Of a DNA stretch of 64,000 nucleotides, positions 263-19,856 are shown in pieces (positions within the stretch are counted from its first letter, which is position 1; each line of letters starts with the position of its first letter). The stretch lies in contig JAFSTI010000030.1 of assembly GCA_017450585.1 (NCBI GenBank), positions 110 through 64,109 of the forward strand. The letters are read 5' to 3'. A program made the translations under genes and the position numbers. This DNA is from Bacteroidales bacterium. Its GTDB lineage: Bacteria; Bacteroidota; Bacteroidia; Bacteroidales; UBA932. The notes under the pieces were generated by a model. That model made no database searches and had not been told where the DNA came from. It saw nothing but the letters and a program-made list of their open reading frames with translations.

Positions 263-1657
263 TCAAAGTGCCTGATGGGCGATGTCAGTGCGGTAAAAGA
301 GGTTGTCGCATTTGATTTTGGCGATTTCGGCGTAGACTTTTGAGGCGACGCTGCGAAGATCTGGGCCGGAGCCTACGACCATCAGCACGCGACCTCCGGC
401 TGTAACCACTTTGGCCCCGACCGGAATATCGGTTTCGGCAGAATTCGAAAGCCCGGCACGCGCAGCACATCCTTCTGCAGAATTCGAAAGCCCATGACCC
501 GCGGCACCGGCTTCGGCAGAATTCGAAAGACCGGCACCTCCAGCGGCAGCGACGGCGCCTTCCGCCAGCGCTGTACCCATGTGGTACACACAGGCGTCGA
601 CGTTTTCGAGGCCTTCTATCGGGAAGCCTTTCTGGTAGGAGCCGGGATAGCCTTTGGAGGCCATCACTACACCCATGGTTACCTCGTCGCGCCATACCGG
701 AGCGGCGACGGGACGTCCTAGTGCTACGGCTTCAAACACCTTGAAGATGTCGCTTTCGATAAGGGGCAATACAACCTCGGTCTCGGGATCTCCGAAACGA
801 GCGTTGAATTCGATGACTTTAATTCCGTCGGGAGTTTTCATCAGGCCGCCGTAGAGGACTCCGGAAAGCGGGCATCCCTCAGCGACCATGGCATCTGCGG
901 TGGCCTGCAGGATATGCTCCAGAGCGAATGTCCTATCCTCTTCACTTATGAAGGGCAATCCAGTGTAGGCTCCCATTCCCCCGGTATTGGGACCCTTGTC
1001 CCCGTCGAAGGCTCGCTTGTGATCCTGAGCCAGCGGCATTGGATAGACGTTGTGGCCGTCCACGAAGCACATAAATGAGAACTCCGGGCCGGTAAGGAAA
1101 TCTTCCACAACCACTTTCCCCTGTCCAAAACGGCCATCCAGCAGCATATCCTTCAATGCGGCCTCAGCCTCAGCGAGATCAGCGGCAATCACAACCCCCT
1201 TCCCTGCGGCGAGTCCGTCATATTTAAGCACTGCCGGGAAGGGACGCCCTGCCACAAAAGCAAGTGCTTCGTCATAGGATGTGAAACTCCGGTAGCCGGA
1301 AGTAGGGATGGAGTATTTCTGCATCAGTATCTTAGCGAACTCCTTGCTGCTCTCAATCCTCGTAGCGGCCTTTGTGTGGCCGAAAATTGCAAGCCCCTCG
1401 GCGCGGAACGCGTCCACTATGCCGGCGCTCAGCGAAGACTCGGGACCGACGACAGTCAGGTCCACTTTTTCGCGCTTCGCCAGTTCTAGCAGACCTGCCA
1501 CGTCAGTATCCTTCAGCGGCACGCAGGTCGCCATTTGGGCAATACCGGCGTTCCCCGGAGCGCAGAGTATTTCAGAAACGGACGGACTGCGGCGCAGAGC
1601 ATCCACAATGGCGTGGCACCTGCCGCCACCGCCGACTACCAGTACTTTCTTTCCCAT
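263..1657 (-). CDS. purD: Phosphoribosylamine--glycine ligase (GAR synthetase) with an in-frame repeat insertion
   Basis: APGNAG, VGPE, ESSKEFAK, GLAAGKGV, DGDKGPNTGGMGAY, EFNARFGDPE, GYPGSY and VTAGGRVL motifs; last gene of the pur cluster. Confidence 0.97.
   Translation of the reverse strand: MGKKVLVVGGGGRCHAIVDALRRSPSVSEILCAPGNAGIAQMATCVPLKDTDVAGLLELAKREKVDLTVVGPESSLSAGIVDAFRAEGLAIFGHTKAATRIESSKEFAKILMQKYSIPTSGYRSFTSYDEALAFVAGRPFPAVLKYDGLAAGKGVVIAADLAEAEAALKDMLLDGRFGQGKVVVEDFLTGPEFSFMCFVDGHNVYPMPLAQDHKRAFDGDKGPNTGGMGAYTGLPFISEEDRTFALEHILQATADAMVAEGCPLSGVLYGGLMKTPDGIKVIEFNARFGDPETEVVLPLIESDIFKVFEAVALGRPVAAPVWRDEVTMGVVMASKGYPGSYQKGFPIEGLENVDACVYHMGTALAEGAVAAAGGAGLSNSAEAGAAGHGLSNSAEGCAARAGLSNSAETDIPVGAKVVTAGGRVLMVVGSGPDLRSVASKVYAEIAKIKCDNLFYRTDIAHQAL
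438..529. repeat. Three-copy 39-bp-period repeat inside purD (GLSNSAE peptide)
   Basis: GCAGAATTCGAAAG begins at 438, 477 and 516; it encodes three GLSNSAE-containing 13-aa units. Confidence 0.95.
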
Positions 1658-1660: not shown

Positions 1661-3196
1661 TCAGTGTTTAAAATGACGCACGCCGGTAAAGAGCATGCAG
1701 ATACCCATTTCATCGGCCTTATCGATAGACTCGTCGTCGCGGATACTTCCGCCCGGCTGGACAATAGTAGTGACCCCGTAGCGTGCTGCCAGTTCAACGG
1801 TATCACCGAAAGGCAGGAAACCGTCCGAAGCCAATACAAGGCCATCGGTGAAACCGGCGTTCTTCGCTTCATTTAGGGCAATATCAGCGGAGCCGACGCG
1901 GTTCGTCTGTCCGGCACCGATACCGATCGTATGATTGTCCCGAACCACGGCGATGGCGTTGGATTTCACGTGCTTGACGATCTTCCAGCCGAACTCGGCA
2001 TCGGCAAGTTGCGCCGCCGTAGGTTTAACCTTAGTGACGCACATTTCGGCGGTAAGCTGCTCCACCTGGGTATCGAGTTGCTGGGAGAGCAATCCCCCAT
2101 TGACACTGATATACTGAGGCACGGAAGCACCGTCACGGGTCATATCGACCTTCATCACTCGGAGATTCTTCTTGGCGGCGAGAATCTCAAGGGCCTCGGG
2201 AGTATAGTCAGGGGCAATTACGATCTCCAGGAAAATAGGCTTCATGCCCAGCGCGACCTCGGCAGTCAGCGTTCGGTTTACACCCACGATTCCTCCGTAA
2301 ATGCTGACCTTATCGGCCTCATACGCGGCCTGCCAGGCTTCTTCAATAGTCGCTCCGACAGCTGCGCCGCAGGGATTCATATGCTTGAGGGCCACACAGA
2401 AAGGCTCCTCGAAGTCACGAAGGACATTCAGGGCTGCATTGGCATCCTGAATATTATTGTACGAAAGCTCCTTTCCCTGTATCTGCTCGGCAAAAGCCAG
2501 TGAGAAGGGGGCGGGCTGCATTGCAGCATAGAACTTGGCACTCTGATGAGGGTTCTCACCGTAGCGAAGGCTCTGCTTCAGGTCGTACTCGAGGAAGAGC
2601 TTCTCATTCAGGCCGGCCTGGGCACGCATATACGTGGCAATGCAGGAGTCATACTCGGCAGTGTGGGTATAAGCCTTCGCAGAGAGTTGCAGACGGGTTT
2701 GGTCGGACGTCTTGCCATTGGTACGGAGCTCATCCAAGACCCGGTCGTAATCAGCGGGATCGCAGATGATGGTGACATCTTTCCAGTTCTTCGCGGCGCT
2801 GCGGACCATCGAAGGGCCGCCGATATCAATATTCTCGATAGCATCCTCCATGCTCACGCCTTCCTTGGCAATAGTCTGGCGGAAAGGATAGAGGTTTACG
2901 CAGACGAGTTCGATGGTCTCGATTCCGTTCTCCTTAAGCGTCTGCATGTGGGCAGGTACATCCCGGCGGGCGAGAATTCCGCCATGTACCTTAGGGTGAA
3001 GGGTCTTCACGCGTCCGTCACAAATCTCGGGGAAACCGGTGACCTCACTGATTCCTATCGTCTTAACGCCTTCGGACTCAAGTAGTTTCTGAGTCCCTCC
3101 GGTCGCAATTATCTCCCAGCCCAGATCGACAAGGCCCTTTACGAAGGGCACCAGGCCGCTTTTATCACTTACACTTACAAGTGCTCTGTTTTTCAT
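1661..3196 (-). CDS. purH: Bifunctional AICAR transformylase/IMP cyclohydrolase
   Basis: ALVSVSDK, GRVKTLHPKVHGGIL, IDIGGPSM, LRYGENPHQ, KHVKSNAI and QPGGSIRD motifs. Confidence 0.98.
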   Translation of the reverse strand: MKNRALVSVSDKSGLVPFVKGLVDLGWEIIATGGTQKLLESEGVKTIGISEVTGFPEICDGRVKTLHPKVHGGILARRDVPAHMQTLKENGIETIELVCVNLYPFRQTIAKEGVSMEDAIENIDIGGPSMVRSAAKNWKDVTIICDPADYDRVLDELRTNGKTSDQTRLQLSAKAYTHTAEYDSCIATYMRAQAGLNEKLFLEYDLKQSLRYGENPHQSAKFYAAMQPAPFSLAFAEQIQGKELSYNNIQDANAALNVLRDFEEPFCVALKHMNPCGAAVGATIEEAWQAAYEADKVSIYGGIVGVNRTLTAEVALGMKPIFLEIVIAPDYTPEALEILAAKKNLRVMKVDMTRDGASVPQYISVNGGLLSQQLDTQVEQLTAEMCVTKVKPTAAQLADAEFGWKIVKHVKSNAIAVVRDNHTIGIGAGQTNRVGSADIALNEAKNAGFTDGLVLASDGFLPFGDTVELAARYGVTTIVQPGGSIRDDESIDKADEMGICMLFTGVRHFKH

Positions 3197-3204: not shown

Positions 3205-4230
3205 TTACTTAATTGTTACTCCAGTTCCTTCGATCACCTTACCTATTACGGTAGCCTTGTCGCCGTGCGAGGCGAGAATCTCGATAGCACGAGGGGCATC
3301 TGCGGCAGGCATTGCGATGACCATTCCGATACCCATATTGAAGATGTTGAACATCTCGCGGTGAGGGATTCCTCCCCATTTCTCGAGCATACGGAAGACG
3401 GGAAGGATTTCCCAGCTGCCCTCGATAACCTCGACTCCCTGGCCTTCGCGCAGAATACGGGGAATATTCTCATCGAAACCGCCACCGGTAATGTGGCTGA
3501 TGCCGTGCGCATCGCAATTTGCGATAACATCCAGCACCTGCTTCACATAGATACGGGTAGGCTCCAGGAGAGTTTCACCGAGAGTGCGGCCGCCGAACTC
3601 AGCGACGCTCTGTTTCAGAGAAAGGCCGGCATCGGCAATTATCTTGCGCACCAGACTGAAACCGTTTGAATGGACGCCTGTGGACGAAATACCGACCAGC
3701 ACGTCACCTACGGAAACCTTGCTGCCGTCGATGAGCTTAGACTTTTCGACCACACCGGTGGTATATCCGGCGATGTCATATTCACCGTCAGAATACATTC
3801 CCGGCATCTCGGCCGTCTCGCCGCCGACCAGCGCACAGCCTGCCTGACGGCAACCCTCTGCCACGCCTGCGACAATCGCCTCTACCTTTTGAGGAATATT
3901 GTGTCCGAGCGCCACATAATCCAGGAAGAAGAGCGGCTCCGCTCCTTGCGCCAGGACGTCGTTCACGCACATGGCCACGGCATCAATACCGATGGTATCG
4001 TGCTTATCCATCTCGAAGGCCAGTTTTAATTTGGTTCCGACACCGTCGGTCCCGCTGACAAGTACAGGCTCTTTAATCCCGAGAGCGGAAAGGTCGAACA
4101 TTCCTCCGAATGATCCGATACCACCCATCGAACCCTTGCGGGATGTCGATGCAACATGCGCCTTGATGCGCCTGACTACCTCATATCCGGCTTCCAGGTT
4201 TACGCCGGCTTTTTCATATGAAACTGCCAT
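3205..4230 (-). CDS. purM: AIR synthetase (phosphoribosylformylglycinamidine cyclo-ligase)
   Basis: [49 protein letters not shown] and FNMGIG motifs. Confidence 0.98.
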
Positions 4231-4233: not shown

Positions 4234-5595
4234 TTATTCGTCTTGTTCGTAATCGTATTGGTACAGTGCCGTAGGATACTCGCCATTAAAGCATGCAAGG
4301 CAGAGTTCGGAGCATCCGAACGAAGATGCTCTGGTGCTTTCGTGGCTGAGATAGCCCAGTGAATCAGCGCCTATGGCGATGCGGGCCTCCTCCAGCGTCC
4401 GCGTGGAGCAGAGAAGCTGGTCGGGAGTCGTCGTATCTACGCCATAGAAGCAAGGATGAGTCATCATCGGGCTGGCGATACGTACATGAACCTCCTTAGC
4501 GCCGGCGTCGCGCAGCATATTCACGATTTGCAGGCAAGTCGTACCGCGAACGATCGAGTCGTCCACGAGCACGATCCTCTTGTCTTTGACAATACTGCGT
4601 ACAGCTGCAAGTTTGATGTGTACGACCTTCTCACGCATATCCTGACGCGGCATAATGAAAGTACGGGTGACGTAACGGTTCTTGATCAATCCCATTTCGT
4701 ACGGCAGACCGCTTTCTTCAGCATAGCCCGATGCGGCGGAGAGAGATGAATCAGGCACGCCGACCACTATATCCGCATCGGCGGGGCACTCGCGGAAAAG
4801 GCGGCGTCCGGCCTCTTTGCGGAAGGCGTGGACATTACATCCGTCTATATCGCTGTCCGGACGGGCCAGATAGATATACTCCATCGCACACATCATATTC
4901 TTATGGAACTGAGAATACTGGCGGGACCTCAATCCATGATAGTCGATGGTCACCACCTCACCGGGCTTGACGTCACGGACCATCTCCGCTCCGATGAAAT
5001 CGAATGCGCAGCTCTCGCTGCTGACCACATAACCGTCACCCAGTTTGCCGATGCAAAGGGGTTTGATACCGAATTTGTCGCGGCAGGCATAGATACGGTT
5101 TTTGGTCATAATCACGAAAGCAAATCCGCCCTCAACCATATTCAGGGCGCTGATGATGCTGTTAATGCGATCCTCTGAGGCCTGTTTCTTAATAAGGTTA
5201 GCCAGCAGTTCGGCATCAGTATCAGTCTGGAATATGCAGCCGCGGTTTTCCAGATAGTCGCGGATCTGACGGCCGTTTACAAAACTGCCGTCGCCCACTA
5301 TGGCGAAGTCTCCGCTCTTATGGCTGAATACTAGTGGCTGGACGTTGTCCAGTCCGGCCTTGACTCCCCCGGCGTAGAGTGTACCGCCAAGGCCTATGCT
5401 GTCGTCGCGTTCTGCTAATTTGGCAGCATCGAAAATATCATTGACGAGGCCGATGCCCCGGTGATGATGACATACTCCGTCCTCAGAGAACGTGGCAATC
5501 CCGGCGCCTTCCTGGCCCCGGTGCTGAAGCAGGTGCAGTCCATAATAGATGACCGAACCGGCTTTCTTTACTCCATATACACCAAATACTCCCAT
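4234..5595 (-). CDS. purF: Amidophosphoribosyltransferase, Bacillus-type with Fe-S cysteines; glutaminase domain appears inactivated
   Basis: LQHRGQEGAGI, EYIYLARPDS, VPDS, VDDSIVRGTT, PCFYG and CLACF motifs are intact; the N-terminus is MGVFG with no catalytic Cys1. Confidence 0.93.
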   Translation of the reverse strand: MGVFGVYGVKKAGSVIYYGLHLLQHRGQEGAGIATFSEDGVCHHHRGIGLVNDIFDAAKLAERDDSIGLGGTLYAGGVKAGLDNVQPLVFSHKSGDFAIVGDGSFVNGRQIRDYLENRGCIFQTDTDAELLANLIKKQASEDRINSIISALNMVEGGFAFVIMTKNRIYACRDKFGIKPLCIGKLGDGYVVSSESCAFDFIGAEMVRDVKPGEVVTIDYHGLRSRQYSQFHKNMMCAMEYIYLARPDSDIDGCNVHAFRKEAGRRLFRECPADADIVVGVPDSSLSAASGYAEESGLPYEMGLIKNRYVTRTFIMPRQDMREKVVHIKLAAVRSIVKDKRIVLVDDSIVRGTTCLQIVNMLRDAGAKEVHVRIASPMMTHPCFYGVDTTTPDQLLCSTRTLEEARIAIGADSLGYLSHESTRASSFGCSELCLACFNGEYPTALYQYDYEQDE

Positions 5596-5599
5596 GGCT

Positions 5600-6313
5600 T
5601 CAGGCGTTTAATCGTTTAAGAACTTCTTCGTAACCTCTGTAGATGTCTCCCATGTCGTGACGGAAACGATCCTTATCCAGAATATCTCCGGTCTGTTTGT
5701 CACGCAGCCGGCAACGGTCCGGACTAAGTTCGTCACTGACAATCAGACGTCCGTCGTAGCGTCCGAACTCCAGTTTGAAGTCCACAAGCTCGATTCCGCA
5801 TGCGTCGAAACGGGCGCTCAGTATCTTGTTCACCTTGTGAGCGGTCTCAATGATGTAATCTACCTCATCATAATTGACCATTCCAAGCGCGACGGCCTCG
5901 TCCCCGTTGATGGGCGGATTGCCGAGAGCGTCGTTGTTGTAGCGGAACTCGACCACCACGTTGGGGGTACGGAAACCTTCCTCCAACCCCAGGCGGTGAG
6001 CCAGGGATCCGGCGATGCGGTTGTGCACTACGACCAGAAGGTCCACAAGCGATATCTTGCGGCATAGCTGCTCGCGTTCACCGTTCTGGGCGATGTAATG
6101 AGTGCTGATGCCCTCTTTCTCCAGTGTCTGGAACAAGATTCCGGAAATCTGGTTGTTAAGGCATCCCAGACCCTTGAAGCGGGCCCTTTTTACTCCGGCA
6201 TAGGCTGTGGCGACATCCTTGTAGCGGATAATCACCTCATCGGCCTTGGCCGTGGAGTAAATCTGCTTTTCGTTGCCATCGAAAAGCAAGTCCTTCTTTT
6301 CAATACTAACCAT
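5600..6313 (-). CDS. purC: SAICAR synthetase homolog with several substituted catalytic residues
   Basis: DFKLEFG, DELSPD and DKDRFR motifs plus position between purL and purF; start moved to ATG at 6313 (MVSIEKK), overlapping the purL stop. Confidence 0.9.
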   Translation of the reverse strand: MVSIEKKDLLFDGNEKQIYSTAKADEVIIRYKDVATAYAGVKRARFKGLGCLNNQISGILFQTLEKEGISTHYIAQNGEREQLCRKISLVDLLVVVHNRIAGSLAHRLGLEEGFRTPNVVVEFRYNNDALGNPPINGDEAVALGMVNYDEVDYIIETAHKVNKILSARFDACGIELVDFKLEFGRYDGRLIVSDELSPDRCRLRDKQTGDILDKDRFRHDMGDIYRGYEEVLKRLNA

Positions 6314-9300
6314 TTGTTTTTTGAAAGTAATTAACGGCGTTCCTGAACAGGTGCTGGTCCAGGTTACCGCTGATATTTTTGAAAACGTTCTTTTCGTACC
6401 TCTCGCTGTGGCCCATCTTGCCAAGGATCTGTCCGCCGGGGCTTATTATACCCTCAATGGCATAGAATGATCCGTTCGGATTCGCGGGCGAAGCCATGGT
6501 CGGCTCTCCGCTGACCGGGTCGGCATAGCGGAACGCGACCAGGTTTTTCTCGAAGAGTTCCTTCGCCATATCCTCGCTGATCACGAACTTGCCCTCCCCG
6601 TGAGAGACGGCGACCGTGTGCAGTTCCCCTTCCCGGAAGCCGGAAAGCCAGGGCGAAGCGGTCGTGCAGACGCGCGTCGTAACCATCTGGGAGATGTGCC
6701 GGTTGATGTCGTTACGGAACAGCGTCGGCGAGTCGGGGGTCAATGCGCCCGTTCTTCCGTAAGGCAGGAGTCCGCTCTTGATCAGGGCCTGGAAGCCATT
6801 ACAGATTCCGAGGATGAGTCCACCGCCGGCAAGATGATCTTCTATAGCTTTGGAAATGAGCTTATTGGCAATAATATCGGCAATGAACTTGCCACTGCCG
6901 TCGGGCTCGTCACCTGCAGAGAATCCGCCGCAGAAACCCAGTATCTGGCAGCGGCCTATATTGTCCGCCATGCGCCGGATGGATGCGTTTACATCTTCCG
7001 GAGTAAGGTTGCAGAATACATCTGTGATGACCTCTGCTCCGGCGCTGCGGAAGGCCTTGGCAGTATCGTAGTCGCAGTTGGTACCCGGAAATACCGGCAG
7101 ATATACAAGCGGTTTGCTGCACTTGTCTGCCTCCCGATAAGGCAAGCTGCATACGGCACGGGTGTCAATATCCATGTCGGGGTGCTGGGCAGGGACTGCA
7201 GCCGGATATACTTGAGAGAAGCGACCTTCACAGCTATCCTGCAGGCGGGCCGGGTCGAGTTTCTGACCGTTGACGGTAAACGTCCCGTCAGTAACCTTTC
7301 CAATGCATTTGAAGTTCGCGGCGTCGCTCAGGTCCATATCGGTTTCAAGCAACATGCCGCCATAGCAAAGGTAGAAGAGTTCGTCTTCGGAAAGGGTTAT
7401 ATTCACGCCCAGCGCATTGCCGAAGGACATTTTGGCAAGTCCCTCTGCCGCGCCGCCAAATCCGCAGGCCCAGGCAGAAAGAATCTTGCCTTCTGCGATA
7501 GCCGAGTGGATGCGGTTCCAGCCTTCCGTGAGAGCGGCGGTATCCGGCATATGATTTTTGAGTACCGGAGGACGGAAATACCAGATTGAGCTCCCGGGTT
7601 TCTTGAAGTCTGTGGAGATTACTTTTGCGGCATCTACAGTAGTGATTCCGAAGGCGATCAGAGTAGGCGGAACGCTGATATCCTCGAAAGTGCCGCTCAT
7701 AGAGTCCTTACCGCCGATGGAAGGCAGACCGAGTGAAAGCTGCATTTTCAGGGCGCCCAGAAGCGCAGAGAGAGGTTTGCCCCAGCTGTGCGGATCGTGA
7801 GTCATGCGCTCAAAATACTCCTGGTAGGAGAACCTCATGCCGGACCAGTCTCCGCCCGCGGCAACCACTTTCGCACATGCGTCCACTACAGCGAAAGCAG
7901 CACCGTGGAAGGGGCTCCAGGAAGACAGGAACGGATTATATCCGAAGGCCATGATACTTGCCGTATCGGTGTAACCGTCCACCGGCAGTTTTTGTACTGA
8001 AACCTGAGTCTCGGAGGCCTGATAGCGTCCACCGAACGGCATCAGGACGGTGGAACGTCCGATTGTAGAGTCGAAGTTTTCAATAAGGCCCTTCTGACTG
8101 CAAACATTTGCAGAAGAAAGTACGCCGCACATCTTTTCCTCCAGACCGGCGCCTACAGGCTTAACTGCGAACGGGTCGCGGTCTTCAACAGCGGCGATAC
8201 AGGCGGCCGCGTAATGGGGCGCTCCGGCGCTGTCGATGAAATCGCGGGAGATATCGGCTACGGTCTGTCCTTTATAGAACATACGCATACGCCCACGGTC
8301 GGTGACATCAGCTACATAAGTTACTTCTACATTGTCCCTGCGACAATATTCTTCCATTTCGGCCCGTGCAGAGGCTTCCACCACGACAGCCATTCTCTCC
8401 TGGGATTCGCTGATTGCGAGTTCCGTGGGGTTGAGTCCGGAATACTTGAGCGGAACGCGGTCCAGCCAGATGTCCAGGCCGGCGGCGAGCTCCCCTATTG
8501 CCACGCTGACTCCCCCCGCGCCGAAATCGTTGGATTTCTTGATTAGGCGGGTGACTTCAGGACGGCGGAACAGCCTCTGGAGCTTGCGCTCCTCGGGGGC
8601 ATTGCCCTTCTGCACCTCACTGCCGCAGGTCTCCAGCGACGCTTCGGTGTGCTCTTTGGATGAGCCGGTCGCACCTCCGATACCGTCACGCCCGGTACGA
8701 CCTCCCAGCAGCAGAATCACATCTCCGGGGGCAGGGCTTTCGCGCCTGACATTGGCTGCTTTAACGGCACCGACCACCGCACCTACTTCCAGCCTTTTGG
8801 CGGTATAGCCCTCATGGATGATTTCGCGAACATGAGTGGTTGCGAGACCGATCTGATTGCCATAACTACTGTATCCGGCAGCTGCTTTACGGCTGATAAC
8901 CCGCTGGGGCAGTTTCCCCGGCATGGTATCCTTTACCGGTTTCCAGATATCACCGGCACCTGTGACACGCATGGCCTGGTAAACATAAGCACGGCCGGAA
9001 AGCGGGTCGCGGATTGCACCGCCGAGGCAGGTTGCCGCCCCGCCGAAGGGCTCGATTTCCGTAGGGTGATTATGGGTCTCATTCTTAAACTGAAGCAGCC
9101 ATTTTTCGGTCTTTCCGTCCACATCCACATCAACGAAAATGCTGCATGCATTGTTCTCCTCGCTCTGCTCCATGTCATCGAGCAGACCTTTGCTCCGGAG
9201 ATAACGGGCGCCGATCGTGGCGAGTTCCATCAGACAGAGCGGCTTTTCGCTGCGGCCCAGTTCAGTCCGGATGCGTTTCACCTCCTCAAGCGTGCAGTTC

Positions 9301-10028: not shown

Positions 10029-10495
10029 TATATCTGGGATGAAAGTACTTTTTCCGCCTGTGCGGCACGGTAAGAATCAAGTTTTGCACTGAGCTCAGGC
10101 TCACTGAGAGCCAAGATGCTAACCGCAATAAGGGCTGCATTTTTCGCTCCGTCGATAGCGACCGTCGCAACCGGAATACCGGAGGGCATCTGTACCATCG
10201 AGAGCAGAGAATCCAGACCTCCGAGATTCTTTGAGGCAATGGGGACGCCCACCACCGGGAGCGTAGTTAACGCGGCGGTCATGCCTGCCAGGTGAGCGGC
10301 ACCGCCGGCCCCGGCTATCAGGACGGCCACGTCCCTGTCTCTGGCACCCTTAACGAATTGAGTGAATTCGACCGGAGTACGGTGTGCACTGAGGACTTTC
10401 TTCTCGTAAGGAACGCCAAACTGCTCCAGTATATCGCAAGCGCCCTTCATCACGGGCCAGTCACTTGCAGAACCCATTATAACACTGACTTTCAT
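10028..10495 (-). CDS. purE: N5-CAIR mutase / AIR carboxylase
   Basis: IMGSASD, SAHRTP, AGGAAHL and [11 protein letters not shown] motifs; start set at ATG 10495 (MKVSVIMGS). Confidence 0.97.
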
Positions 10496-10499
10496 AGTA

Positions 10500-11588
10500 T
10501 TAACTGTTTTCTTTAATTTTAGCATCGCAATAAGCGCAGCGGACGGTTCCGGAATCGGTCCTGCGAAACATTGCAGGCACACTTTCGTGATTCGAGATAC
10601 ATTTGCCGTTCGGGCAGCGCATCGAAGGATCCTCGAAACACTCCGGATGTTCGGGCATCGCATGTCCTCTGTCGTCCTTCCATCTTAGCAGGCTGTAAAT
10701 CAACGCCATCCGGACGAACTTGCCGTTTTCCACCTGACGGAAATACGCAGCCCTGGGGTCAATGTCTACCTCCGGGAGGATCTCATTTACCCTCGGGAGC
10801 GGATGCAGGACTGCCATGGAGCGCTTTGCGAGGCGCATCTTGGAGGCATCCAGCACGAAACTGTCCTTCACCCTGTCGAACTCATCCTCATCCAGGAAAC
10901 GCTCCTTCTGCACGCGGGTCATATAGAGCACATCGAGTTGAGAAATAACTTCTTCGATAGTCGAGACCTCGCGGTAATCAATGCCTTGGCGGTCACATAC
11001 ATCCTGCTTGATATAATCAGGCAGTCGAAGTTCGTCAGGAGCGATCAGGATTACCTTCACGTTCTTATACCGCGACAGGGCCTTAATCAGGGAGTGAACC
11101 GTACGGCCGAAGCGAAGGTCGCCGCAGAATCCGATAGTAATGCCGTCAATATGCCCGATTTCGCGGGTGATGGTGAGCAGGTCGGTGAGAGTCTGCGTCG
11201 GATGGCTGTGTGAGCCGTCTCCGGCATTGACAATCGGGACGGGAGAGACTGCCGATGCCACGAGCGGAGCACCTTCCAGATTGTGCCTCATAGCAATAAT
11301 GTCTGCGAAGCATCCGACGACGCGCACCGTATCCTCGACGGTTTCGCCCTTGCTAACCGAAGAATTGGCGGCATCGGAAAAGCCGAGTACATTACCGCCC
11401 AGCTCCATCATGGCGGCGGTAAAGCTCAGCCTCGTACGGGTGCTGGGCTCATAGAAAAGGGTCGCCAATTTCCGGCCTTCCAGCACCTTGGAATAGCGTT
11501 CGCGGTTAGCGATTATGTCCTGCGCGAGCGAGATGATTTCATCCAGTTCCTGTTTGCTGAGGTCAGTCGGGTCAATCAGGTGTTTCAT
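10500..11588 (-). CDS. pyrB: Aspartate carbamoyltransferase catalytic chain fused to a C-terminal PyrI-type zinc domain
   Basis: [35 protein letters not shown] and HPLPR motifs; C-terminal [11 protein letters not shown]...RCAYC extension. Confidence 0.95.
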
Positions 11589-12193
11589 AGGCTGTCTCTG
11601 AATTTAAGTATATCTGTTTTCTGTTCTTCCGTAATATATCCTTCCTCCACCGCCACGTCCACAAGTGCATCCAGGCAGCTGAGAGAATGATTCTCTACCT
11701 TCGCGGCTGCGAGCCTGTCCAGCCCCTTTTGCATGCCGTAGGTAAAAATACTGATGATTCCGAGCACCTCAGCGCCTTCTTCACGCAGTGCCTCGACCAC
11801 GTCGATGACGCTGCCTCCGGTAGAGATAAGGTCTTCGATTACCACCACTTTACATCCTTGGGGCATGCGCCCTTCGATGCGGTTTGCTCGGCCGTGATCC
11901 TTCGCCGATCCGCGTACATAGCCCATAGGCAGGTCAAGTATAGATGCCGCGATGGCCGCATGCGCGATACCGGCAGTGGATGTTCCCATCAGCATCTCGC
12001 ATTGCGGATAAAGCTCTTTCACCCTCGCGGCAATGGCATTTTCCACCACCTGCCGCGCCTTCGGGGCGGAGAGGATAAGCCTGTTATCACAGTAAATCGG
12101 GCTTTTAATGCCACTTGCCCAGGTAAAGGGCTCATCCGGCCTCAAAAAAACTGCGCCGATCGAGAGCAGCTGATGTGCGATTGTCCTTTCCAT
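11585..12193 (-). CDS. pyrE: Orotate phosphoribosyltransferase
   Basis: FTWASGIKSPIYCDNR, KDHG and VIEDLISTGGS motifs; ATG at 12193 preferred. Confidence 0.96.
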   Translation of the reverse strand: MERTIAHQLLSIGAVFLRPDEPFTWASGIKSPIYCDNRLILSAPKARQVVENAIAARVKELYPQCEMLMGTSTAGIAHAAIAASILDLPMGYVRGSAKDHGRANRIEGRMPQGCKVVVIEDLISTGGSVIDVVEALREEGAEVLGIISIFTYGMQKGLDRLAAAKVENHSLSCLDALVDVAVEEGYITEEQKTDILKFRDSL

Positions 12194-12195
12194 AT

Positions 12196-12903
12196 CTATC
12201 CGCAAAAATCTTCAATACATTTGTAATATGCCGCGAGGGGGTCTTCCGCTGCAGTTATCGGCCTTCCGACCACGACATAGTCGGAGCCGAGTTCCCGCGC
12301 CATTGCGGGCGTGGTGATACGCACCTGGTCGTCCTTCGCCGCGCCCTCGAAACGGATTCCGGGAGTGACGGTCAGAAAAGCCTTCCCGCAGGTCTTCTTC
12401 ACGGAGGCAGCTTCCAGCGGCGAGCAGACCACCCCGTCCAGACCGGCGCTCCGGGCGTTCAGGGCGTAGGCAGAAATCGTCTCCTCCATCCCGGCGCCGA
12501 TGAGAAGCTCATCCCGCAGCGCCTGCGCTGAAGTTGAGGTCAATTGTGTCACGGCGATGAGCAGCGGTCTGGTGCCGTCTTCGCGGGTCAGTCCCTCCAG
12601 GGCAGCCTGCATCATTGCGGACGTGCCGGCCGCGTGGACATTGACCATATCCACATCCAGGGATGAAAGCACGCGCATAGCCTTGCGTACCGTATTAGGA
12701 ATGTCGTGCAGCTTCAGGTCCAGGAAGATACTGTGTCCCCGGGCCTTGATCTCCCGCACTATCGACGGACCTTCGGCGTAGAACAGCTCCATGCCGATCT
12801 TCACGAAGGGTTTGCGGTCCTCCGCGCCGAAATTGTCCAGAAACGCGAAGGTCTGTGCTGCGCTGCTGAAGTCGCAGGCGATTATAACGTCCCGTCCTTT
12901 CAT
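12196..12903 (-). CDS. pyrF: Orotidine-5'-phosphate decarboxylase
   Basis: KIGMEL, FLDLKLHDIPNT, VTQLTS, VTPGIR and VVGRPIT motifs. Confidence 0.97.
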   Translation of the reverse strand: MKGRDVIIACDFSSAAQTFAFLDNFGAEDRKPFVKIGMELFYAEGPSIVREIKARGHSIFLDLKLHDIPNTVRKAMRVLSSLDVDMVNVHAAGTSAMMQAALEGLTREDGTRPLLIAVTQLTSTSAQALRDELLIGAGMEETISAYALNARSAGLDGVVCSPLEAASVKKTCGKAFLTVTPGIRFEGAAKDDQVRITTPAMARELGSDYVVVGRPITAAEDPLAAYYKCIEDFCG

Positions 12904-13814
12904 ACCGTTCCGATTATTTCAGTCAATTTCTCTATGCCGAGCCGTTCCATGACGGCGGGCAGTTCTGCGGCGATGCGCGGGCAGCAGAACGGGTCGCGGA
13001 GATTCTCCGAACCGACCTGTACTGCACTGGCACCTGCCATCATCATTTCAATAACATCTTCGGCCGTCCCTACCCCGCCACATCCGATTACCGGTACGGA
13101 GCAGGCGTGCGCGACCTGCCAAACCATGCGCAGCGCCACCGGGAATATCGCCCTTCCCGAAAACCCGCCGGTCGTATTTGCCAGCACCGGTTTGCGTGTG
13201 GCAATATTGATACGCATGCCCAGCAGCGTGTTGATCAGGGTCAATGCATCCGCCCCTTCCGCCTCGCATGCCCGGGCGATCTCCACGATGTCGGTGACGT
13301 TCGGGCTGAGCTTGACGCAGAGTTTCTTGTGACCGGCGGCTTTGCGGGCGGCAGCGGTGACTCGGGCTGCGCAGCGCGGATCCGTTCCGAATGCCAGTCC
13401 TCCGCCGTGCACGTTCGGGCAGGAGATATTGAGTTCTATCATGTCAATACCCTCGCACGCCGCGGCCTTTTCGCAGCAGAGCGCGTACTCCTGCTCGCTG
13501 AAGCCGCTGATATTGGCAATAACCACACCCCCGTATACTTTCCGCAACGAGGGGACAATCTCGCCGGTAAGGCGGTCAATTCCGGGATTCTGCAGGCCGA
13601 CGGAGTTGAGCATACCGCCCTCGCACTCGGCGATGCGCGGTGTAGGATTGCCATAACGCGGCTCGGCGGTCGTACCTTTCAGGCTGATGCCTCCGAGCAG
13701 GTTCAGGTCCATGCTGTCCGCCATCTCCAGGCCGAAGCCGAAAGTGCCGCTGGCCGGGATGATGGGGTTGCGGAACTTAATCCCGCAGACACTTGTGCTG
13801 ATGTCCCTTACCAT
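12900..13814 (-). CDS. pyrD: Dihydroorotate dehydrogenase family 1B catalytic subunit
   Basis: ASGTFG, NSVGLQNPG, ELNISCPNV, KLSPNV, INTL and GGFSG motifs. Confidence 0.96.
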   Translation of the reverse strand: MVRDISTSVCGIKFRNPIIPASGTFGFGLEMADSMDLNLLGGISLKGTTAEPRYGNPTPRIAECEGGMLNSVGLQNPGIDRLTGEIVPSLRKVYGGVVIANISGFSEQEYALCCEKAAACEGIDMIELNISCPNVHGGGLAFGTDPRCAARVTAAARKAAGHKKLCVKLSPNVTDIVEIARACEAEGADALTLINTLLGMRINIATRKPVLANTTGGFSGRAIFPVALRMVWQVAHACSVPVIGCGGVGTAEDVIEMMMAGASAVQVGSENLRDPFCCPRIAAELPAVMERLGIEKLTEIIGTV

Positions 13815-14542
13815 ATCATATCCTCCTTTGCGAACACCGGACCGTCAGCGCAGACGCGTGCGGGGCCGTTATTTGTCTGTATGCTGCAGCCATAACAAAT
13901 GCCTGTCCCGCAGCCCATTCTCTCCTCCATGCTGAATTCGCCTGGTGTGTCCAGATATGCGGCCACGGCTTTCATCATGATTTTCGAACCGCAGCAGTAA
14001 TAATAATCATATCCTCTAGCCGGGGCAATAGCTTCGGTCACGACTCCTTTCAGTCCTGCCGTACCGTCCACTGTGGCGAGGTGCACTTTCAAGCCCAGTT
14101 TCTCGAATTCCTCTTTATAGAAGACCAGGGTCGCCGTGTTAAAGCCCAGCGCCACTTCCACTTCCTTTCCCGCAGCGAGAAGTTCCCGGGCGAGCAGCAG
14201 CAGCGGAGCCGTGCCGACGCTTCCGCCTATCAGCAGAGCCTTCCTGCCAGTTTTCTGAGGATGGAAGCCCTTGCCCAGGCCGGTAATCGTATCGACACTA
14301 TCCCCTTCTTTCAGAGCGGTCATATACCTGGTACCCTTGCCGACAACTTTATAGACAATCGTGAGCAGTCCGTCCTGTACATCGCTGACCGAGAAGGGAC
14401 GGCGCAGGAACACTCCGGGAATGGACAGCTGTACGAACTGTCCGCTGCCGCTTATGGCGCTGCAGTCGCCTTCCAGCACCAGTTTCCAGGTGTCGGCCGC
14501 GATGGGGACGTTTTCACGCACTATAAAGTTGACCTGCTTCAT
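13808..14542 (-). CDS. pyrK: Dihydroorotate dehydrogenase electron transfer subunit
   Basis: LRRPFSV FAD motif and EERMGCGTGICYGC...C 2Fe-2S motif; adjacent to pyrD. Confidence 0.94.
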   Translation of the reverse strand: MKQVNFIVRENVPIAADTWKLVLEGDCSAISGSGQFVQLSIPGVFLRRPFSVSDVQDGLLTIVYKVVGKGTRYMTALKEGDSVDTITGLGKGFHPQKTGRKALLIGGSVGTAPLLLLARELLAAGKEVEVALGFNTATLVFYKEEFEKLGLKVHLATVDGTAGLKGVVTEAIAPARGYDYYYCCGSKIMMKAVAAYLDTPGEFSMEERMGCGTGICYGCSIQTNNGPARVCADGPVFAKEDMIW

Positions 14543-17500
14543 TTCTGCCTGTATTCAGCGTCAATAGTTGAAATACCAAGTGTTATCTCTTCCAGAACAT
14601 CCAGTAATACCCGAACGGTTTCGAGAGAAGTGAAGATGCTGACATTGTTCTCCACGGCCGCGCGGCGAATCTCATATCCGTCCAGGCGGGTACTGTGCTG
14701 GTCGATATCGATAGTATTGATGACATAGTTCACATGGCCCTTGCTCAAGGAACGGAAGATATCGTCACTGCCCTCGCTGATCTTGTGCAGCAGCCGCGTC
14801 TTTATGCCGTGTGCGCGCAGGAACTCGGCCGTTCCCCGCGTGGCCTCGATATTGAAACCTAAGTTGTAGAAGCGACGGATAAGCGGAAGCGCTTTCTCCT
14901 TATCCACATCGGCGATAGTGACGAAGATAGTGCCGTAGTTCACCACATGCACACCGGAAGCCTGCAGGGACTTGTACAGCGCCCTGGTCAGGGAATCGTC
15001 GTAACCGATCGCTTCGCCGGTGGATTTCATCTCGGGAGAGAGATATGAATCTATTCCCTTGATCTTTCCGAAGGAGAAAGCCGGTGTCTTTACGAAGTGG
15101 CGTTTGGATTCTTTGTGATAGACTTCCGTTATGCCCTGATCTTTCAAGGACTGGCCCAGCATAACTAGAGTGGCGATCTTAGCCATGGGAACTCCCGTGG
15201 ATTTGGACAGGAACGGGACCGTACGGGAAGAGCGGGGATTTACCTCGATTACGTAGACCTTGTCATCAGGGTCCACGATAAATTGGATATTGAACAGACC
15301 CTTAATGCCGATTTCCAGACCGAGACGGGTGGAGTATTCGATAACGGTCTTTTTCACTTCCTCGCTGATGCTGAAGGAAGGATAGACGCTGATAGAGTCG
15401 CCGGAATGGATTCCGGTATGTTCCACGTGCTCCATGATTCCGGGGATAAAGACATCCTTGCCGTCGCAGATTCCGTCGATCTCAATCTCCTTGCCCTGAA
15501 TGTATTTGTCCACGAGCACGGGCGAATCTTCGTTGATCTCAACTGCATTCTGCAGGTAGTGGCGCAGGTTGTCTTCATTATTGACAATCATCATTGCCCT
15601 TCCTCCCAGCACGAAACTCGGACGCACCAGGACCGGGAACCCGATCTCATGGGCAGCCTGCACGCCTTCTTCAATGTCCGTGACGGCCTTGGCCTTGGGC
15701 TGAGGGATGCCGATGCGGCGCATGATGGATTCAAATATCTTACGGTCTTCGGCATTGTCAATAGCCTCGATGTCCGTGCCGATAATGGGGATGCCGAATG
15801 CGCTGAGCGGCTTTGCCAGGTTGATGGCGGTCTGTCCTCCGAGGCTCACTATCACTCCGTCCGGCTTTTCCAGATTGATGACGTTCATCACGTCTTCGAC
15901 TGTCAGCGGCTCGAAATAGAGCTTATCGGAGATGGTATAGTCGGTCGAGACTGTTTCGGGGTTGTTGTTGATGATTATGGCTTCGTAGCCGGCTTCCCTG
16001 ATCGCCCAGATGGCGTGAACGGTCGAATAGTCGAACTCTACGCCCTGTCCGATACGGATCGGGCCGGAACCGAGTACCAGAATCTTCTTCCGGCCGCTGG
16101 GAACGGAGTCATTGCCATATCCGTAGGTCGAGTAATAGTACGGAACGTTGGATACGTGCTTTTTGGGATAGCAGTCAATAGTCTTGTAGCCGGGGACGAT
16201 GTCGTGGTCCAGGCGGTAGCGGGTGATGTTCTCGGATTTGTCTCCCCAGAGCAGGGCGATCTCGGCATCACTGAATCCCATTGCCTTAGCTTCTTTAAGA
16301 ATGGCCTCGTCGCCGGGGTTTTCTTTCAGCCTGCTTTCCATCACCACGATGTTCAGGATTTTCTCAAGGAAGAAGGGCGTGATGCGGGTTGCATCATAGA
16401 GATCCTGAATGCTGACGCCGACCCTCATAGCCTGTGCAATGGCATGAATGCGGTCATCCGTGGGCTTTTCACAGTATGTGAGCAGTTGGCTTGCTGTCCA
16501 GTTATCGAATTTCTTGTTGTGAAGGTGACATACGCCGGTCTCCAGCGAGCGGGCTGCCTTGAGGAAGCTTTCTTCAATACTTTTGCCTATGCTCATTACC
16601 TCTCCGGTCGCTTTCATCTGGGTTCCGAGCTCGTTGGATGCTTCGGTGAATTTATCGAAGGGGAAGCGCGGGAACTTGGCGACATAATAGTCCAGGGCCG
16701 GGTCGAAGGATGCTTCGTGACCGTCCAGCTGGATTTCGTCCAGGGTGAGACCTACGGCGACTTTCGCCGTGACACGTGCTATGGGATAACCGCTGGCCTT
16801 GCTGGCAAGGGCCGAAGAGCGGGATACGCGGGGGTTGACCTCGATCAGGTAGTACCTGGAGGAATCCGGATCCTGGGCGAACTGGATATTGCATCCGCCT
16901 TCTATCTTCAGCGCGCGAATAATCTTGATGGCGCTGCTGCGAAGCGTCTTGTACTCTTTATTGTCCAGGGTGAGGGCGGGGGCTACGACGATGGAATCAC
17001 CGGTATGCACACCCACGGGGTCGACATTCTCCATGCTACAGATGGTGACCACCCTGTCGGTGCTGTCCCGCATCACCTCGAATTCTATTTCCTTGTAGCC
17101 TTTAACGCTCTTCTCAATCAGCACCTGGTGTACAGGCGAGAGAGCTAAAGCTCCATGCATGAGTTCTTCGAGTTCTGCCCTGTCGTTTGCGAATCCGCCG
17201 CCTGTCCCTCCGAGGGTAAATGCCGGTCTGAGGACCACGGGATAGCCTATCTTATCAGCTACCTTTACGGCTTCGGGAACACTGTAGACGATTTCGGAGG
17301 GGATCACAGGCTCGCCGAGACTGATGCAGAGTTCTTTGAACAGCTCCCTGTCTTCCGCCTGCTCGATGCTCTCGAACGGGGTGCCGAGAAGTTTGACCTG
17401 ACACTCATCCAGGATCCCTTTTTTCGCAAGCTGCACGGCCAGATTTAGTCCAGTCTGGCCGCCCAGGCCGGGAACTATCGCGTCGGGACGTTCGTAACGG

Positions 17501-17733
17501 ATGATCTTGGCGATGTACTCAAGTTTAAGAGGTTCCATATAAACCTTATCCGCCATATGGGTATCCGTCATGATTGTGGCGGGATTGGAGTTCACCAGAA
17601 TCACTTCATAGCCTTCTTCTTTGAGGGCGATGCAGGCCTGGGTGCCGGCATAGTCGAATTCAGCGGCCTGCCCGATAACGATCGGGCCTGAGCCGATGAC
17701 CATAACCTTCTTGATGTCAGTTCTTTTAGGCAT
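14539..17733 (-). CDS. carB: Carbamoyl-phosphate synthase large subunit
   Basis: GSGPIVIGQAAEFDY, second-half GSGPIRIGQGVEFDY, two IEVNPR motifs and a C-terminal MGS domain (IEATRGT). Confidence 0.98.
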   Translation of the reverse strand: MPKRTDIKKVMVIGSGPIVIGQAAEFDYAGTQACIALKEEGYEVILVNSNPATIMTDTHMADKVYMEPLKLEYIAKIIRYERPDAIVPGLGGQTGLNLAVQLAKKGILDECQVKLLGTPFESIEQAEDRELFKELCISLGEPVIPSEIVYSVPEAVKVADKIGYPVVLRPAFTLGGTGGGFANDRAELEELMHGALALSPVHQVLIEKSVKGYKEIEFEVMRDSTDRVVTICSMENVDPVGVHTGDSIVVAPALTLDNKEYKTLRSSAIKIIRALKIEGGCNIQFAQDPDSSRYYLIEVNPRVSRSSALASKASGYPIARVTAKVAVGLTLDEIQLDGHEASFDPALDYYVAKFPRFPFDKFTEASNELGTQMKATGEVMSIGKSIEESFLKAARSLETGVCHLHNKKFDNWTASQLLTYCEKPTDDRIHAIAQAMRVGVSIQDLYDATRITPFFLEKILNIVVMESRLKENPGDEAILKEAKAMGFSDAEIALLWGDKSENITRYRLDHDIVPGYKTIDCYPKKHVSNVPYYYSTYGYGNDSVPSGRKKILVLGSGPIRIGQGVEFDYSTVHAIWAIREAGYEAIIINNNPETVSTDYTISDKLYFEPLTVEDVMNVINLEKPDGVIVSLGGQTAINLAKPLSAFGIPIIGTDIEAIDNAEDRKIFESIMRRIGIPQPKAKAVTDIEEGVQAAHEIGFPVLVRPSFVLGGRAMMIVNNEDNLRHYLQNAVEINEDSPVLVDKYIQGKEIEIDGICDGKDVFIPGIMEHVEHTGIHSGDSISVYPSFSISEEVKKTVIEYSTRLGLEIGIKGLFNIQFIVDPDDKVYVIEVNPRSSRTVPFLSKSTGVPMAKIATLVMLGQSLKDQGITEVYHKESKRHFVKTPAFSFGKIKGIDSYLSPEMKSTGEAIGYDDSLTRALYKSLQASGVHVVNYGTIFVTIADVDKEKALPLIRRFYNLGFNIEATRGTAEFLRAHGIKTRLLHKISEGSDDIFRSLSKGHVNYVINTIDIDQHSTRLDGYEIRRAAVENNVSIFTSLETVRVLLDVLEEITLGISTIDAEYRQK

Positions 17734-17739
17734 ACACTA

Positions 17740-19026
17740 TTATTTCAAATATTCTTTTCTTTCATAAACTATCGCGCCGCCGTGCATGGTGAGCGCGCAT
17801 CTTCCTTTAACGGCCCAGCCTTCGAACGGGGTCGCGTGGCCCTTGCTAAGGAATTCGTCCGGATTGACGAAGTAGCGGTTCGACGTGTCAAATACAGCTA
17901 GTTCCGCAAGCGCCCCTTCTTCCAGTTCCGCCGGCCTCAGTGTGAAAAGTCGGCGTGGATTGTCACTCATAAGGCGGATGAGCTGCGAGGCATTGATGAT
18001 ACCGCGCTGTACGAGCCTGGTATAGAGGACCGGGAAGGCTGTTTCTAGTCCTACCACTCCGAATGCGCTCTCCTGCAGACCCTTCCCCTTCTGCTCGGCA
18101 GTGTGCGGGGCATGGTCTGTGGCAATTATGTCGATCGTCCCGTCCTTGATGCCCTGAATCAGAGCCATCCTATCCTGCTCACTGCGAATCGGCGGATTCA
18201 TCTTAAAACGTCCGTCTTCTTCTATGTCCCGGTCAATGAGTGCGAGGTAATGTGGCGCAGTCTCGCACGTGACCTTTACTCCGCGTTTTTTCGCTTTCCG
18301 GATAAGATCGACGCTTTCTTTTGTGGAAATATGGCAGACGTGATAGCGGCATCCGGTCTCAGCGGCCAGTTTCAGGTCCCGCTCGATCTGTCCCCATTCG
18401 CTGCGGGAGCAGATGCCCTTGTGCCCATGGAGGCCTGCGTAGCTGCCCTGATGGATATATCCGCCGTTCAGAAGTGAATTATCCTCGCAGTGTGCAGCCA
18501 GGATGCAGTCGTTCTCGGCAATAAGTCTCATCGCCTCTTCCATGGCCTTTTCGTCCTGCACGCCGCTGCCGTCGTCGGAGAACGCGACGGCCTTGCCCTT
18601 AAGCGACTTTACATCCACAGGCTCGAGGCCTTTTCTACCTTTCGTAATGGTGGCGTAAGGGAGGACGTCGATGCAGGCGTTCTCGTCGATGAGTTTCTGT
18701 TCTATGGCAATGTTTTCAAGGCTGTCTGGGGCCGGATTGAGGTTCGGCATGGTGCAGACAGCGGTGAATCCGCCGGCCGCAGCCGCCATGGAGCCTGTCT
18801 TTATTGTTTCTTTCTCCGGATTGCCGGGTTCGCGGAAGTGCACGTGTACATCGGCGAGCGCGGGTGTGACAATGCATCCGTGAGCGTCGAGGATCTTTAT
18901 GCCTTCCGGGATCTGTATGTCGCGGGCAATCTGTGCGATAATACCGTCGCGCACAAGCAGGTCCGCTTTACGCGAACCCTGGGAGTCAAGAATGACTCCG
19001 TTTCGTATCAGAATCGATTCAGACAT
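17740..19026 (-). CDS. pyrC: Dihydroorotase (type I)
   Basis: DVHVHFREPG, MPNLNP, CHIS, KMNPP and ATDHAPH motifs; ATG at 19026 preferred over the upstream TTG. Confidence 0.96.
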   Translation of the reverse strand: MSESILIRNGVILDSQGSRKADLLVRDGIIAQIARDIQIPEGIKILDAHGCIVTPALADVHVHFREPGNPEKETIKTGSMAAAAGGFTAVCTMPNLNPAPDSLENIAIEQKLIDENACIDVLPYATITKGRKGLEPVDVKSLKGKAVAFSDDGSGVQDEKAMEEAMRLIAENDCILAAHCEDNSLLNGGYIHQGSYAGLHGHKGICSRSEWGQIERDLKLAAETGCRYHVCHISTKESVDLIRKAKKRGVKVTCETAPHYLALIDRDIEEDGRFKMNPPIRSEQDRMALIQGIKDGTIDIIATDHAPHTAEQKGKGLQESAFGVVGLETAFPVLYTRLVQRGIINASQLIRLMSDNPRRLFTLRPAELEEGALAELAVFDTSNRYFVNPDEFLSKGHATPFEGWAVKGRCALTMHGGAIVYERKEYLK

Positions 19027-19038
19027 AACCAAATAATC

Positions 19039-19070
19039 AACAAAAAAGCAGACAGAAAACTGCCTGCTTT
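19039..19070 (-). terminator. Intrinsic terminator in the 5' leader of the pyr-pur operon (attenuator)
   Basis: Minus strand AAAGCAGGCAG-TTTT-CTGTCTGCT-TTTTTGTT: 9-11 bp stem (one G-U) followed by a U tract, just upstream of pyrC. Confidence 0.75.
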
Positions 19071-19152
19071 AATCCTCTAGCGGAGGGAATATGCCCTGCT
19101 GCACGCTGCAGCCCGGGGTCCCGAGGGATGATGCATAATTCCTTCCTTTCAT
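19069..19152 (-). CDS. Putative 27-aa leader peptide (MKGRNYASSLGTPGCSVQQGIFPPLED)
   Basis: ATG lies 7 nt after the TAACTTTG box and the TAA stop runs directly into the terminator stem; below the ORF-track length cutoff. Confidence 0.45.
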   Translation of the reverse strand: MKGRNYASSLGTPGCSVQQGIFPPLED

Positions 19153-19167
19153 AACTTTGCAAAGTTA
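19152..19167. promoter_or_regulatory. Perfect 16-bp palindrome TAACTTTGCAAAGTTA carrying a Bacteroidetes -7 box on both strands
   Basis: TAnnTTTG consensus on both strands, between the divergent pyrC and DUF4923 genes. Confidence 0.65.
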
Positions 19168-19854: not shown

Positions 19855-19856
19855 AT

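Follow-up and report, generated by a model that had tools for sequence, protein, structure and literature searches.

Since PurF is the textbook glutamine amidotransferase that carries out the committed step of purine synthesis, the question arises what a PurF homologue would do whose glutamine site has been dismantled. Such a protein is encoded in a stretch of 64,000 nucleotides from a Bacteroidales bacterium (GenBank assembly GCA_017450585.1, contig JAFSTI010000030.1), the whole of which we refer to as the window. The gene, here called purF* (type A), specifies a 453-aa amidophosphoribosyltransferase homologue without the N-terminal cysteine (Cys1). From our point of view, its product is probably a functional [4Fe-4S]-type, ammonia-dependent phosphoribosyl pyrophosphate (PRPP) amidotransferase that would work without glutamine hydrolysis, and glutamine-dependent activity is predicted to be absent. 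The original prediction had read the gene in the same way, as one that retained PRPP amination and dropped glutamine use, and this reading is now supported by the signature of selection, by a large clade of homologues, by the operon slot of the gene and by genomes in which such a protein is the only PurF found. None of the computational tests that might have refuted an ammonia-only PurF did so, and each of them spoke for it.

The protein is a PurF of the B. subtilis type. It scores 456.9 bits on TIGR01134, the PurF equivalog model (EC 2.4.2.14; curated cut-off 350 bits), and in HMMER its alignment with B. subtilis PurF (1ao0, E=8.7e-145) covers the full length. Pfam places GATase_7/GATase_6 at residues 81-198 and Pribosyltran at residues 267-371, in keeping with the two-domain architecture of PurF, i.e. 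an N-terminal nucleophile (Ntn) class II glutaminase joined to a type I phosphoribosyltransferase (PRTase). An AlphaFold model built from 50 homologues (predicted local distance difference test, pLDDT, 76.5; predicted template modelling score, pTM, 0.75) superposes on 1ao0 with a template modelling (TM) score of 0.81 in Foldseek.

What the protein lacks is the nucleophile. Its open reading frame (ORF) begins ATG GGA GTA TTT GGT (MGVFG), Met occupies the Cys1 column, and removal of this Met would expose Gly instead of the processed N-terminal Cys, Ser or Thr of an Ntn hydrolase. The in-frame codons 5' of the ATG read stop-T-P-E-A, so that neither a propeptide nor a Cys further upstream could be accommodated, as had been noticed from the outset. 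An upstream start with a Cys-bearing propeptide was considered and is ruled out by the stop four codons 5', and likewise at 20 other type A loci; at every type A locus a stop codon lies 1-10 codons 5' of the start. At a single locus (L054) the ATG is immediately preceded by a Cys codon, but a plausible start is lacking there.

The losses extend into the glutamine pocket, in which, in E. coli numbering, we take Asn101-Gly102 to form the oxyanion hole and Arg73, Thr76 and Asp127 to be glutamine ligands. In the alignment to 1ao0, GHVRYAT of B. subtilis PurF corresponds to GGTLYAG, AHNGNLVN to VGDGSFVN and SSDTE to TDAE. In the window protein, Arg is replaced by Leu73, Thr by Gly76, His by Gly101 and the oxyanion-hole Asn (E. 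coli Asn101) by Asp102, and R26, Y74, G103 (Gly102 in E. coli) and D127 are retained. The predicted losses of the glutamine-binding Arg and of the oxyanion Asn are borne out by this alignment. Of the third change described, from SDTE to TDAE, the change itself stands, but the functional Asp is still there: only the neighbouring residue is altered in the window protein, and the Asp at the E. coli D127 position is retained in 131 of 139 type A members.

These 139 members (best database homologues plus genome-derived copies) were compared with 33 canonical relatives, and they put the size of the type A clade, which comes from Bacteroidales metagenomes of herbivore guts, at 139 homologues at least. 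The residue pattern is common to all of them and is neither chance nor sequencing error. The Cys1 position is Met in 139/139, followed by Gly (75) or Ser (64); the His71 position holds S/A/N/G, Arg73 is Q/K/R/L with Arg in only 32, Thr76 has become Asn in 129, Gly78 is S/A, position 79 is Lys in 125, and the His100 position holds G/S/N/C. The position of Asn101, which is Asn in 33/33 canonical sequences, is always acidic in type A (82 Asp and 57 Glu), while R26, G27, Y74, P87, G102 and D127 are invariant or nearly so. Among the columns that are invariant in canonical PurFs, 9 of 65 are altered in the N domain, where 56 remain unchanged, whereas the C domain has a single altered column out of 77 (Fisher p=0.006, with rows that are not independent). 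The dismantling is thus targeted at the glutamine pocket, the remaining domain and the channel being preserved. The 120 best database homologues (67-100% identity) all start M-[GS]-[VIL]-[FLI]-G, one truncated entry excepted. An alternative nucleophile was also looked for in type A; no other conserved Cys was found, and Cys42 was rejected as a candidate, being present in just 64/139.

The PRTase domain of the window protein contains the PRPP loop DDSIVRGTT (residues 345-353), the flexible-loop residues K305 and R311 and the Fe-S cysteines Cys236, Cys382, Cys432 and Cys435; compared with 1ao0, it preserves VDDSIVRGTT, VPDS and every one of the Fe-S Cys positions. Neither the loop nor K305 and R311 vary among the 139 type A members, and the Fe-S positions are Cys in 120/120 close homologues and invariant in a 50-sequence type A subset. 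The original description of these motifs and cysteines as conserved is correct. In E. coli numbering, the flexible-loop residues K326 and R332 and also Y258, Y329, F334, I335, V370 and L415 are invariant or near-invariant; we take the last six to line the ammonia channel. The C domain of type A also carries clade-specific substitutions (R265, K356, M377/M378 and R399).

Both domains of purF* are under strong purifying selection. The ratio of nonsynonymous to synonymous substitution rates (dN/dS, Nei-Gojobori, pairs with unsaturated dS) lies between 0.026 and 0.074 in the N domain and between 0.021 and 0.060 in the C domain. Of the checks proposed with the original prediction, the comparison of dN/dS per domain thus revealed no relaxation of the PRTase domain, and the survey of homologues returned the loss of Cys1 and of the oxyanion Asn in all 139 members. 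In a maximum-likelihood tree, 21/21 type A sequences fall into one clade (Shimodaira-Hasegawa-like approximate likelihood ratio test, SH-aLRT, 100; stem 0.30), which is nested among canonical operon PurFs of the same Bacteroidales family that have a propeptide (…hEE before CGVFG) and that group with B. subtilis PurF. As such, type A has a single origin inside the Bacteroidales operon PurFs, and Gly and Ser after the Met alternate among its close relatives. As to horizontal transfer of the operon, a comparison of nine loci by the pairwise identities of their PurL, PurM, PurH and PurD proteins yielded no clear signal either way.

The genomic role of the gene is that of a purF, whose product comes first in de novo purine synthesis. 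In the window it adjoins purC and purM in the order purE-purL-purC-purF*-purM-purH-purD, and the slot is positionally conserved (purL-purC-purF-purM-(purN)-purH-purD): it is filled by a canonical Cys1 PurF in genomes G006 and G138 and by type A in G270, G256, G158, G212, G315 and G298. Among 201 genomes of the window's family, type A is present in seven. In four of these (G212, G270, G256 and G158; 94-97% complete) it is the only PurF homologue found by a prefiltered search (protein query at E<=1e-30 and TIGR01134 at E<=1e-5), and a complete, selected pur operon with only a Cys1-less PurF argues that the purF* product itself would make phosphoribosylamine. The type A carriers named in public records are metagenome-assembled genomes (MAGs) from rumen, omasum, cecum and horse faeces, which agrees with the ammonia-rich gut or rumen that the original prediction had in mind.

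In this context, a parallel loss in carbamoyl-phosphate synthetase deserves attention. No GATase or CPSase_sm_chain domain was found in the window carB product with NCBIfam or Pfam, and no carA ORF is present upstream of pyrC (19033-20750), which abuts carB; in G158 and G315, pyrK directly follows pyrC. Three other type A genomes do possess an operonic CarA, with a broken catalytic triad in each case (Table 1). Catalytic Cys and His are both kept in only 21 of 121 related CarA sequences, which are annotated 'glutamine-hydrolyzing' despite these triad losses. As to a pairing of intact CarA with canonical PurF, the two intact-CarA genomes examined show no linkage between the pyr operon and pur genes, and the same holds for one genome with a Cys->Ser CarA. 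The inactivation or absence of CarA in type A operons suggests a coordinated adaptation and not a one-off event.

The lineage has kept glutamine chemistry elsewhere. A canonical PurF (MSQIHEE before CGVFG…GHVRY…AHNGN…SSDSE; 452 bits) is encoded on contig C18 of the window genome, a different contig from that of purF*, and both forms likewise occur together in G298 and G315. Since this canonical Cys1 PurF, the operonic PurL (GICNGFQ) and GlmS (MCGIVG) retain their nucleophiles, the organism still uses glutamine. On metagenome contigs, an identical canonical PurF is found in the order gltB-gltD-dapF-aminotransferase-pyrG-carA-carB-purF-purA-purC(312 aa)-purB (L068:1-14967), a cluster that groups four glutamine amidotransferases with a second, long-form purC of 312 aa; at the equivalent locus of G298, a carA-carB fusion precedes the canonical purF. 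The purF* product would be the operon-encoded isozyme, with the glutamine-dependent canonical PurF housed in a separate amidotransferase cluster.

How such an enzyme might operate can be outlined as follows, whereby we infer its catalytic activity, ammonia as its donor and the entry route. Phosphoribosylamine would be formed from PRPP and free ammonia, and the Ntn domain would have been retained to support the PRTase domain structurally and, probably, to form the entrance of the conserved ammonia channel. Through the loss of Cys1, His71, Arg73 and His100, the pocket that once took up glutamine would have been cleared of bulky and catalytic residues, with a new lining provided by the changes Thr76->Asn, position 79->Lys and Asn101->Asp/Glu, and ambient NH3/NH4+ would enter there and then reach the PRPP site. 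PPAT uses ambient NH3, and an entry of external NH3 by way of the glutamine site has been proposed (PMC12017579). One could speculate further that the remodelled pocket is a dedicated site of ammonium capture and deprotonation that makes NH4+-dependent synthesis of phosphoribosylamine efficient, with the invariant Asp/Glu101, the new Lys79 and Asn76 and the retained Tyr74, Asp127 and channel as its basis, and that a large share of gut Bacteroidota draw on free ammonia instead of glutamine when they begin to make purines and pyrimidines. The wider part of this idea is drawn from the dead or absent operonic CarA and from a second Cys-less PurF-like protein, that of most Bacteroidota (type C, see below), taken together with the pocket; as a joint proposal it is tentative, and we would at present sooner doubt it than rely on it.

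If purF* does encode an ammonia-dependent enzyme, free ammonia can be the physiological nitrogen donor for purines in ammonia-rich guts, and a natural system would be at hand for the old mechanistic question of the route by which NH3 from outside arrives at the PRPP site. For Bacteroidales of rumen and gut, genome-scale metabolic models and annotations, in which these proteins figure as 'amidophosphoribosyltransferase' and 'glutamine-hydrolyzing carbamoyl-phosphate synthase small subunit', would then mis-state the flow of nitrogen; the best database homologues of purF* are entered as 'MAG: amidophosphoribosyltransferase [Bacteroidales bacterium]'.

Several other explanations can be imagined, and they rank below an ammonia-dependent enzyme because of the points that count against each of them. 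That purF* is a decaying duplicate or pseudogene could be read from its relatively faster N domain (N/C p-distance ratio of 1.67 in type A vs 1.10 in canonical PurFs), but because of the low dN/dS in both domains (about 0.03-0.07) we rejected relaxed selection, and with at least 139 intact full-length members that share conserved replacement residues this explanation is effectively refuted, its chance being close to nil. Type A might instead depend catalytically on a partner, either as the pseudo-glutaminase subunit of a hetero-oligomer with canonical PurF or as its regulator. The window genome, G298 and G315 do hold both proteins, and archaeal PurF' invariably accompanies PurF (PMC3261824); such a dependence is nonetheless distinctly unlikely, given four nearly complete genomes with a complete pur operon and type A as the sole PurF homologue, and given PRTase catalytic motifs that are all invariant. 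Ammonia could also be provided in trans by a separate glutaminase or amidotransferase docked on the remodelled N domain, which would suit the strong conservation of this domain, the residues K79, N76 and D/E101 that the clade has newly acquired on its surface or in the pocket, and the active-looking glutaminase domain of the same-operon PurL. However, the pur operons of the window and of G270 contain no stand-alone glutaminase gene, and the operonic CarA is either missing or a dead glutaminase itself, so we consider this supply route unlikely.

It is very improbable, too, that nitrogen still comes from glutamine or a different amide by way of a non-canonical nucleophile such as the Ser that would be exposed in M-S variants. 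Other hydrolases are known to use Ser as their Ntn nucleophile, and Ser follows the Met in 64/139 members, but the residue is Gly in the 75 others, the window protein among them, and the two alternate among close relatives; moreover, Asp or Glu invariably takes the place of the oxyanion Asn, Arg73 is mostly lost, and the E. coli C1S mutant is without glutamine activity, as cited in PMC3261824. A changed chemistry, with some other nucleophile than ammonia being added by the PRTase or with a role outside purine synthesis, might explain the clade-specific substitutions in the C domain. We give it a slim chance, since the gene is placed as purC-purF*-purM in a complete pur operon, PurD as the next enzyme needs phosphoribosylamine, the PRPP and flexible-loop residues are unchanged and the protein is the only PurF in some genomes. 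Ammonia-dependent synthesis of phosphoribosylamine by purF* is left as the probable function, yet some observations weigh against it. The glutaminase of the same-operon PurL is retained, so glutamine was not given up by this lineage in general. The conserved R26, Y74 and D127 together with the invariant acidic residue 101 could mean a ligand-binding pocket and not an open vestibule. Confidence in the structural model is moderate, with weak stretches at residues 119-138, D127 among them, and at the PRTase flexible loop. Finally, the sole-PurF result comes from MAGs and from a prefiltered search that reported glmS in genome G000 but not in the four genomes concerned.

Table 1. Positions of the features discussed, in the window unless another locus is named.
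Feature	Position	Strand	Basis and remarks
purF* (type A)	4234..5595	(-)	Amidophosphoribosyltransferase homologue without Cys1; TIGR01134, 1ao0, AlphaFold 2 (AF2) model
N-terminal Ntn-glutaminase-like domain, residues 1-228	4912..5595	(-)	Pfam GATase_7/GATase_6; column comparison with 33 canonical PurFs
PRTase domain, residues 229-453	4237..4911	(-)	Pfam Pribosyltran; invariance in type A sets
Start context of purF*	5590..5610	(-)	TAA-ACG-CCT-GAA-GCC-ATG-GGA, read directly; TAA is the purC stop
Leu73	codon 5377-5379	(-)	In place of E. coli R73
Asp102	5290..5292	(-)	Codon GAC; oxyanion-hole Asn position (E. coli N101)
Asp of SDTE motif (E. coli D127), retained	codon 5215-5217	(-)	Alignment
purD	263-1657	(-)	ORF; synteny with eight other loci
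purH	1661-3196	(-)	ORF; synteny with eight other loci
purM	3205-4230	(-)	ORF; synteny with eight other loci
purC, 237 aa	5600-6313	(-)	NCBIfam TIGR00081, 179.5 bits (cut-off 189.9)
purL, large, glutaminase Cys intact	6306-10028	(-)	NCBIfam FGAM (formylglycinamidine ribonucleotide) synthase, 1674 bits; GICNGFQ motif
purE	10028-10498	(-)	NCBIfam, 211.6 bits
pyr part of super-operon	10500..19032	(-)	pyrC, carB, pyrK, pyrD, pyrF, pyrE, pyrB-pyrI; joins purE directly
pyrB-pyrI	10500-11588	(-)	ORF translation; Pfam in syntenic L071/L073
carB, 1064 aa	14539-17733	(-)	NCBIfam and Pfam; no carA between or upstream
pyrC	17740-19032	(-)	NCBIfam and Pfam
Operonic CarA of G298	L028:1592-2674		Cys->Gly, GICLG -> GLGLG
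Operonic CarA of P0008 genome	L073:3721-4800		GVSLGH (Cys->Ser) and HPE->YPE (His->Tyr)
Operonic CarA of L077	L077:10001-11059		HPE->YPE (His->Tyr); adjoins a type A PurF starting MSIFG

Some further features of these operons can be added here. The pyr and pur genes of the window lie head to tail in one co-directional cluster of 14 genes and ~19 kb with short or overlapping junctions, which is without purK, purB and purN; within it, pyrK, pyrD, pyrF, pyrE and pyrB-pyrI were named from their ORF translations and from the Pfam domains of syntenic L071/L073 proteins. The purD gene contains an in-frame 39-bp tandem repeat (window 434-538; 2.7 copies, 78% matches), which encodes units with G(L)SNSAE and looks like an insertion in the C-terminal region of PurD. 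In G270 the operon comprises a purC-like gene, purE, purL, purC, purF*, purM, purN, purH and a purD-folD fusion (702-aa ORF; L022:13492-15600), and in the P0008 genome a separate folD follows purD; several type A operons have, upstream of purE, an additional purC-like gene with a weaker score (118 bits). One genus (L041 and L042, also L043 and L044) has an in-frame fusion of purC with a canonical purF (706-712 aa), with a short linker that ends …EIHEE before CGVFG, and in this fusion Cys1 could be exposed only by an autoprocessing event that releases the whole PurC domain.

Among the known systems, B. subtilis PurF (1ao0, 1gph) is the closest in build: it shares with purF* ~48-49% full-length identity, the two-domain fold, the pur-operon context, the same four Fe-S cysteines, the PRPP loop and the flexible loop. 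In contrast to it, purF* has neither propeptide nor Cys1, and the His, Arg, Thr, His and Asn of the glutamine site are replaced. The E. coli Cys1 mutants lack the same residue, and in the C1A and C1S proteins glutamine activity was lost and ammonia-dependent synthesis of phosphoribosylamine remained (Mei & Zalkin 1989, as cited in PMC3261824), in line with the statement of the original prediction that amidotransferases without Cys1 keep NH3-dependent activity. These are laboratory point mutants, whereas the loss in type A is natural and ancient and comes with a coordinated remodelling of the whole pocket.

A different Cys1-less PurF-like protein is widespread in Bacteroidales, namely a 468-aa Bacteroidota protein that we call type C and that starts MSGFFG or MGGFFG. 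It too has two domains and is annotated as amidophosphoribosyltransferase, and with it the earlier remark that native Bacteroides PurF lacks Cys1 proved right. It has Ser or Gly at the Cys1 position (L007, L008, L009 and L015; P0121-P0240) and shows 79-91% conservation across the 120 homologues closest to it, but it is only 30-35% identical to type A, reads HLGTKRGG for HRGQE and reaches 196 bits on TIGR01134, below the cut-off; it was not found in the window genome. Type C is a separate, independent Cys1-less lineage, which supports the original suggestion of convergence.

The nearest published concept that our literature searches returned is the crenarchaeal PurF', and no report of a bacterial Cys-less PurF was found in them. 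PurF' lacks the N-terminal Cys and has been hypothesised, untested, to be an ammonia-dependent PRPP aminotransferase (Brown et al. 2011, Biol Direct 6:63; PMC3261824). Like type A it is a Cys-less PurF homologue among purine genes; unlike type A it belongs to archaea, carries Ala or Val where the Cys would be and is in every case found beside a canonical PurF. Type A, for its part, replaces the operon copy, has its canonical counterpart on another contig or, in four genomes, none that was found, and co-occurs with dead or absent CarA. Its nested position among the canonical PurFs of Bacteroidales (SH-aLRT 100), in a tree that contained no archaeal PurF' sequences, implies that it probably arose independently of PurF'.

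For the CarA of these operons, the ammonia-specific CPS1 offers a parallel, as its glutaminase-like domain is dead via Cys->Ser and environmental ammonia is used (PMC4655335). Triad losses of this kind are seen in the operonic CarA proteins beside type A PurFs. CPS1 differs from purF* in having a class I (triad) glutaminase domain, in its reaction and in being eukaryotic and mitochondrial. Overall, a Cys-less PurF' and the idea of ammonia use were already known from archaea, and what would be new here is the bacterial clade and its parallel in CarA: a large, naturally selected clade that would have lost glutaminase chemistry and yet kept both the domain and the ammonia channel.

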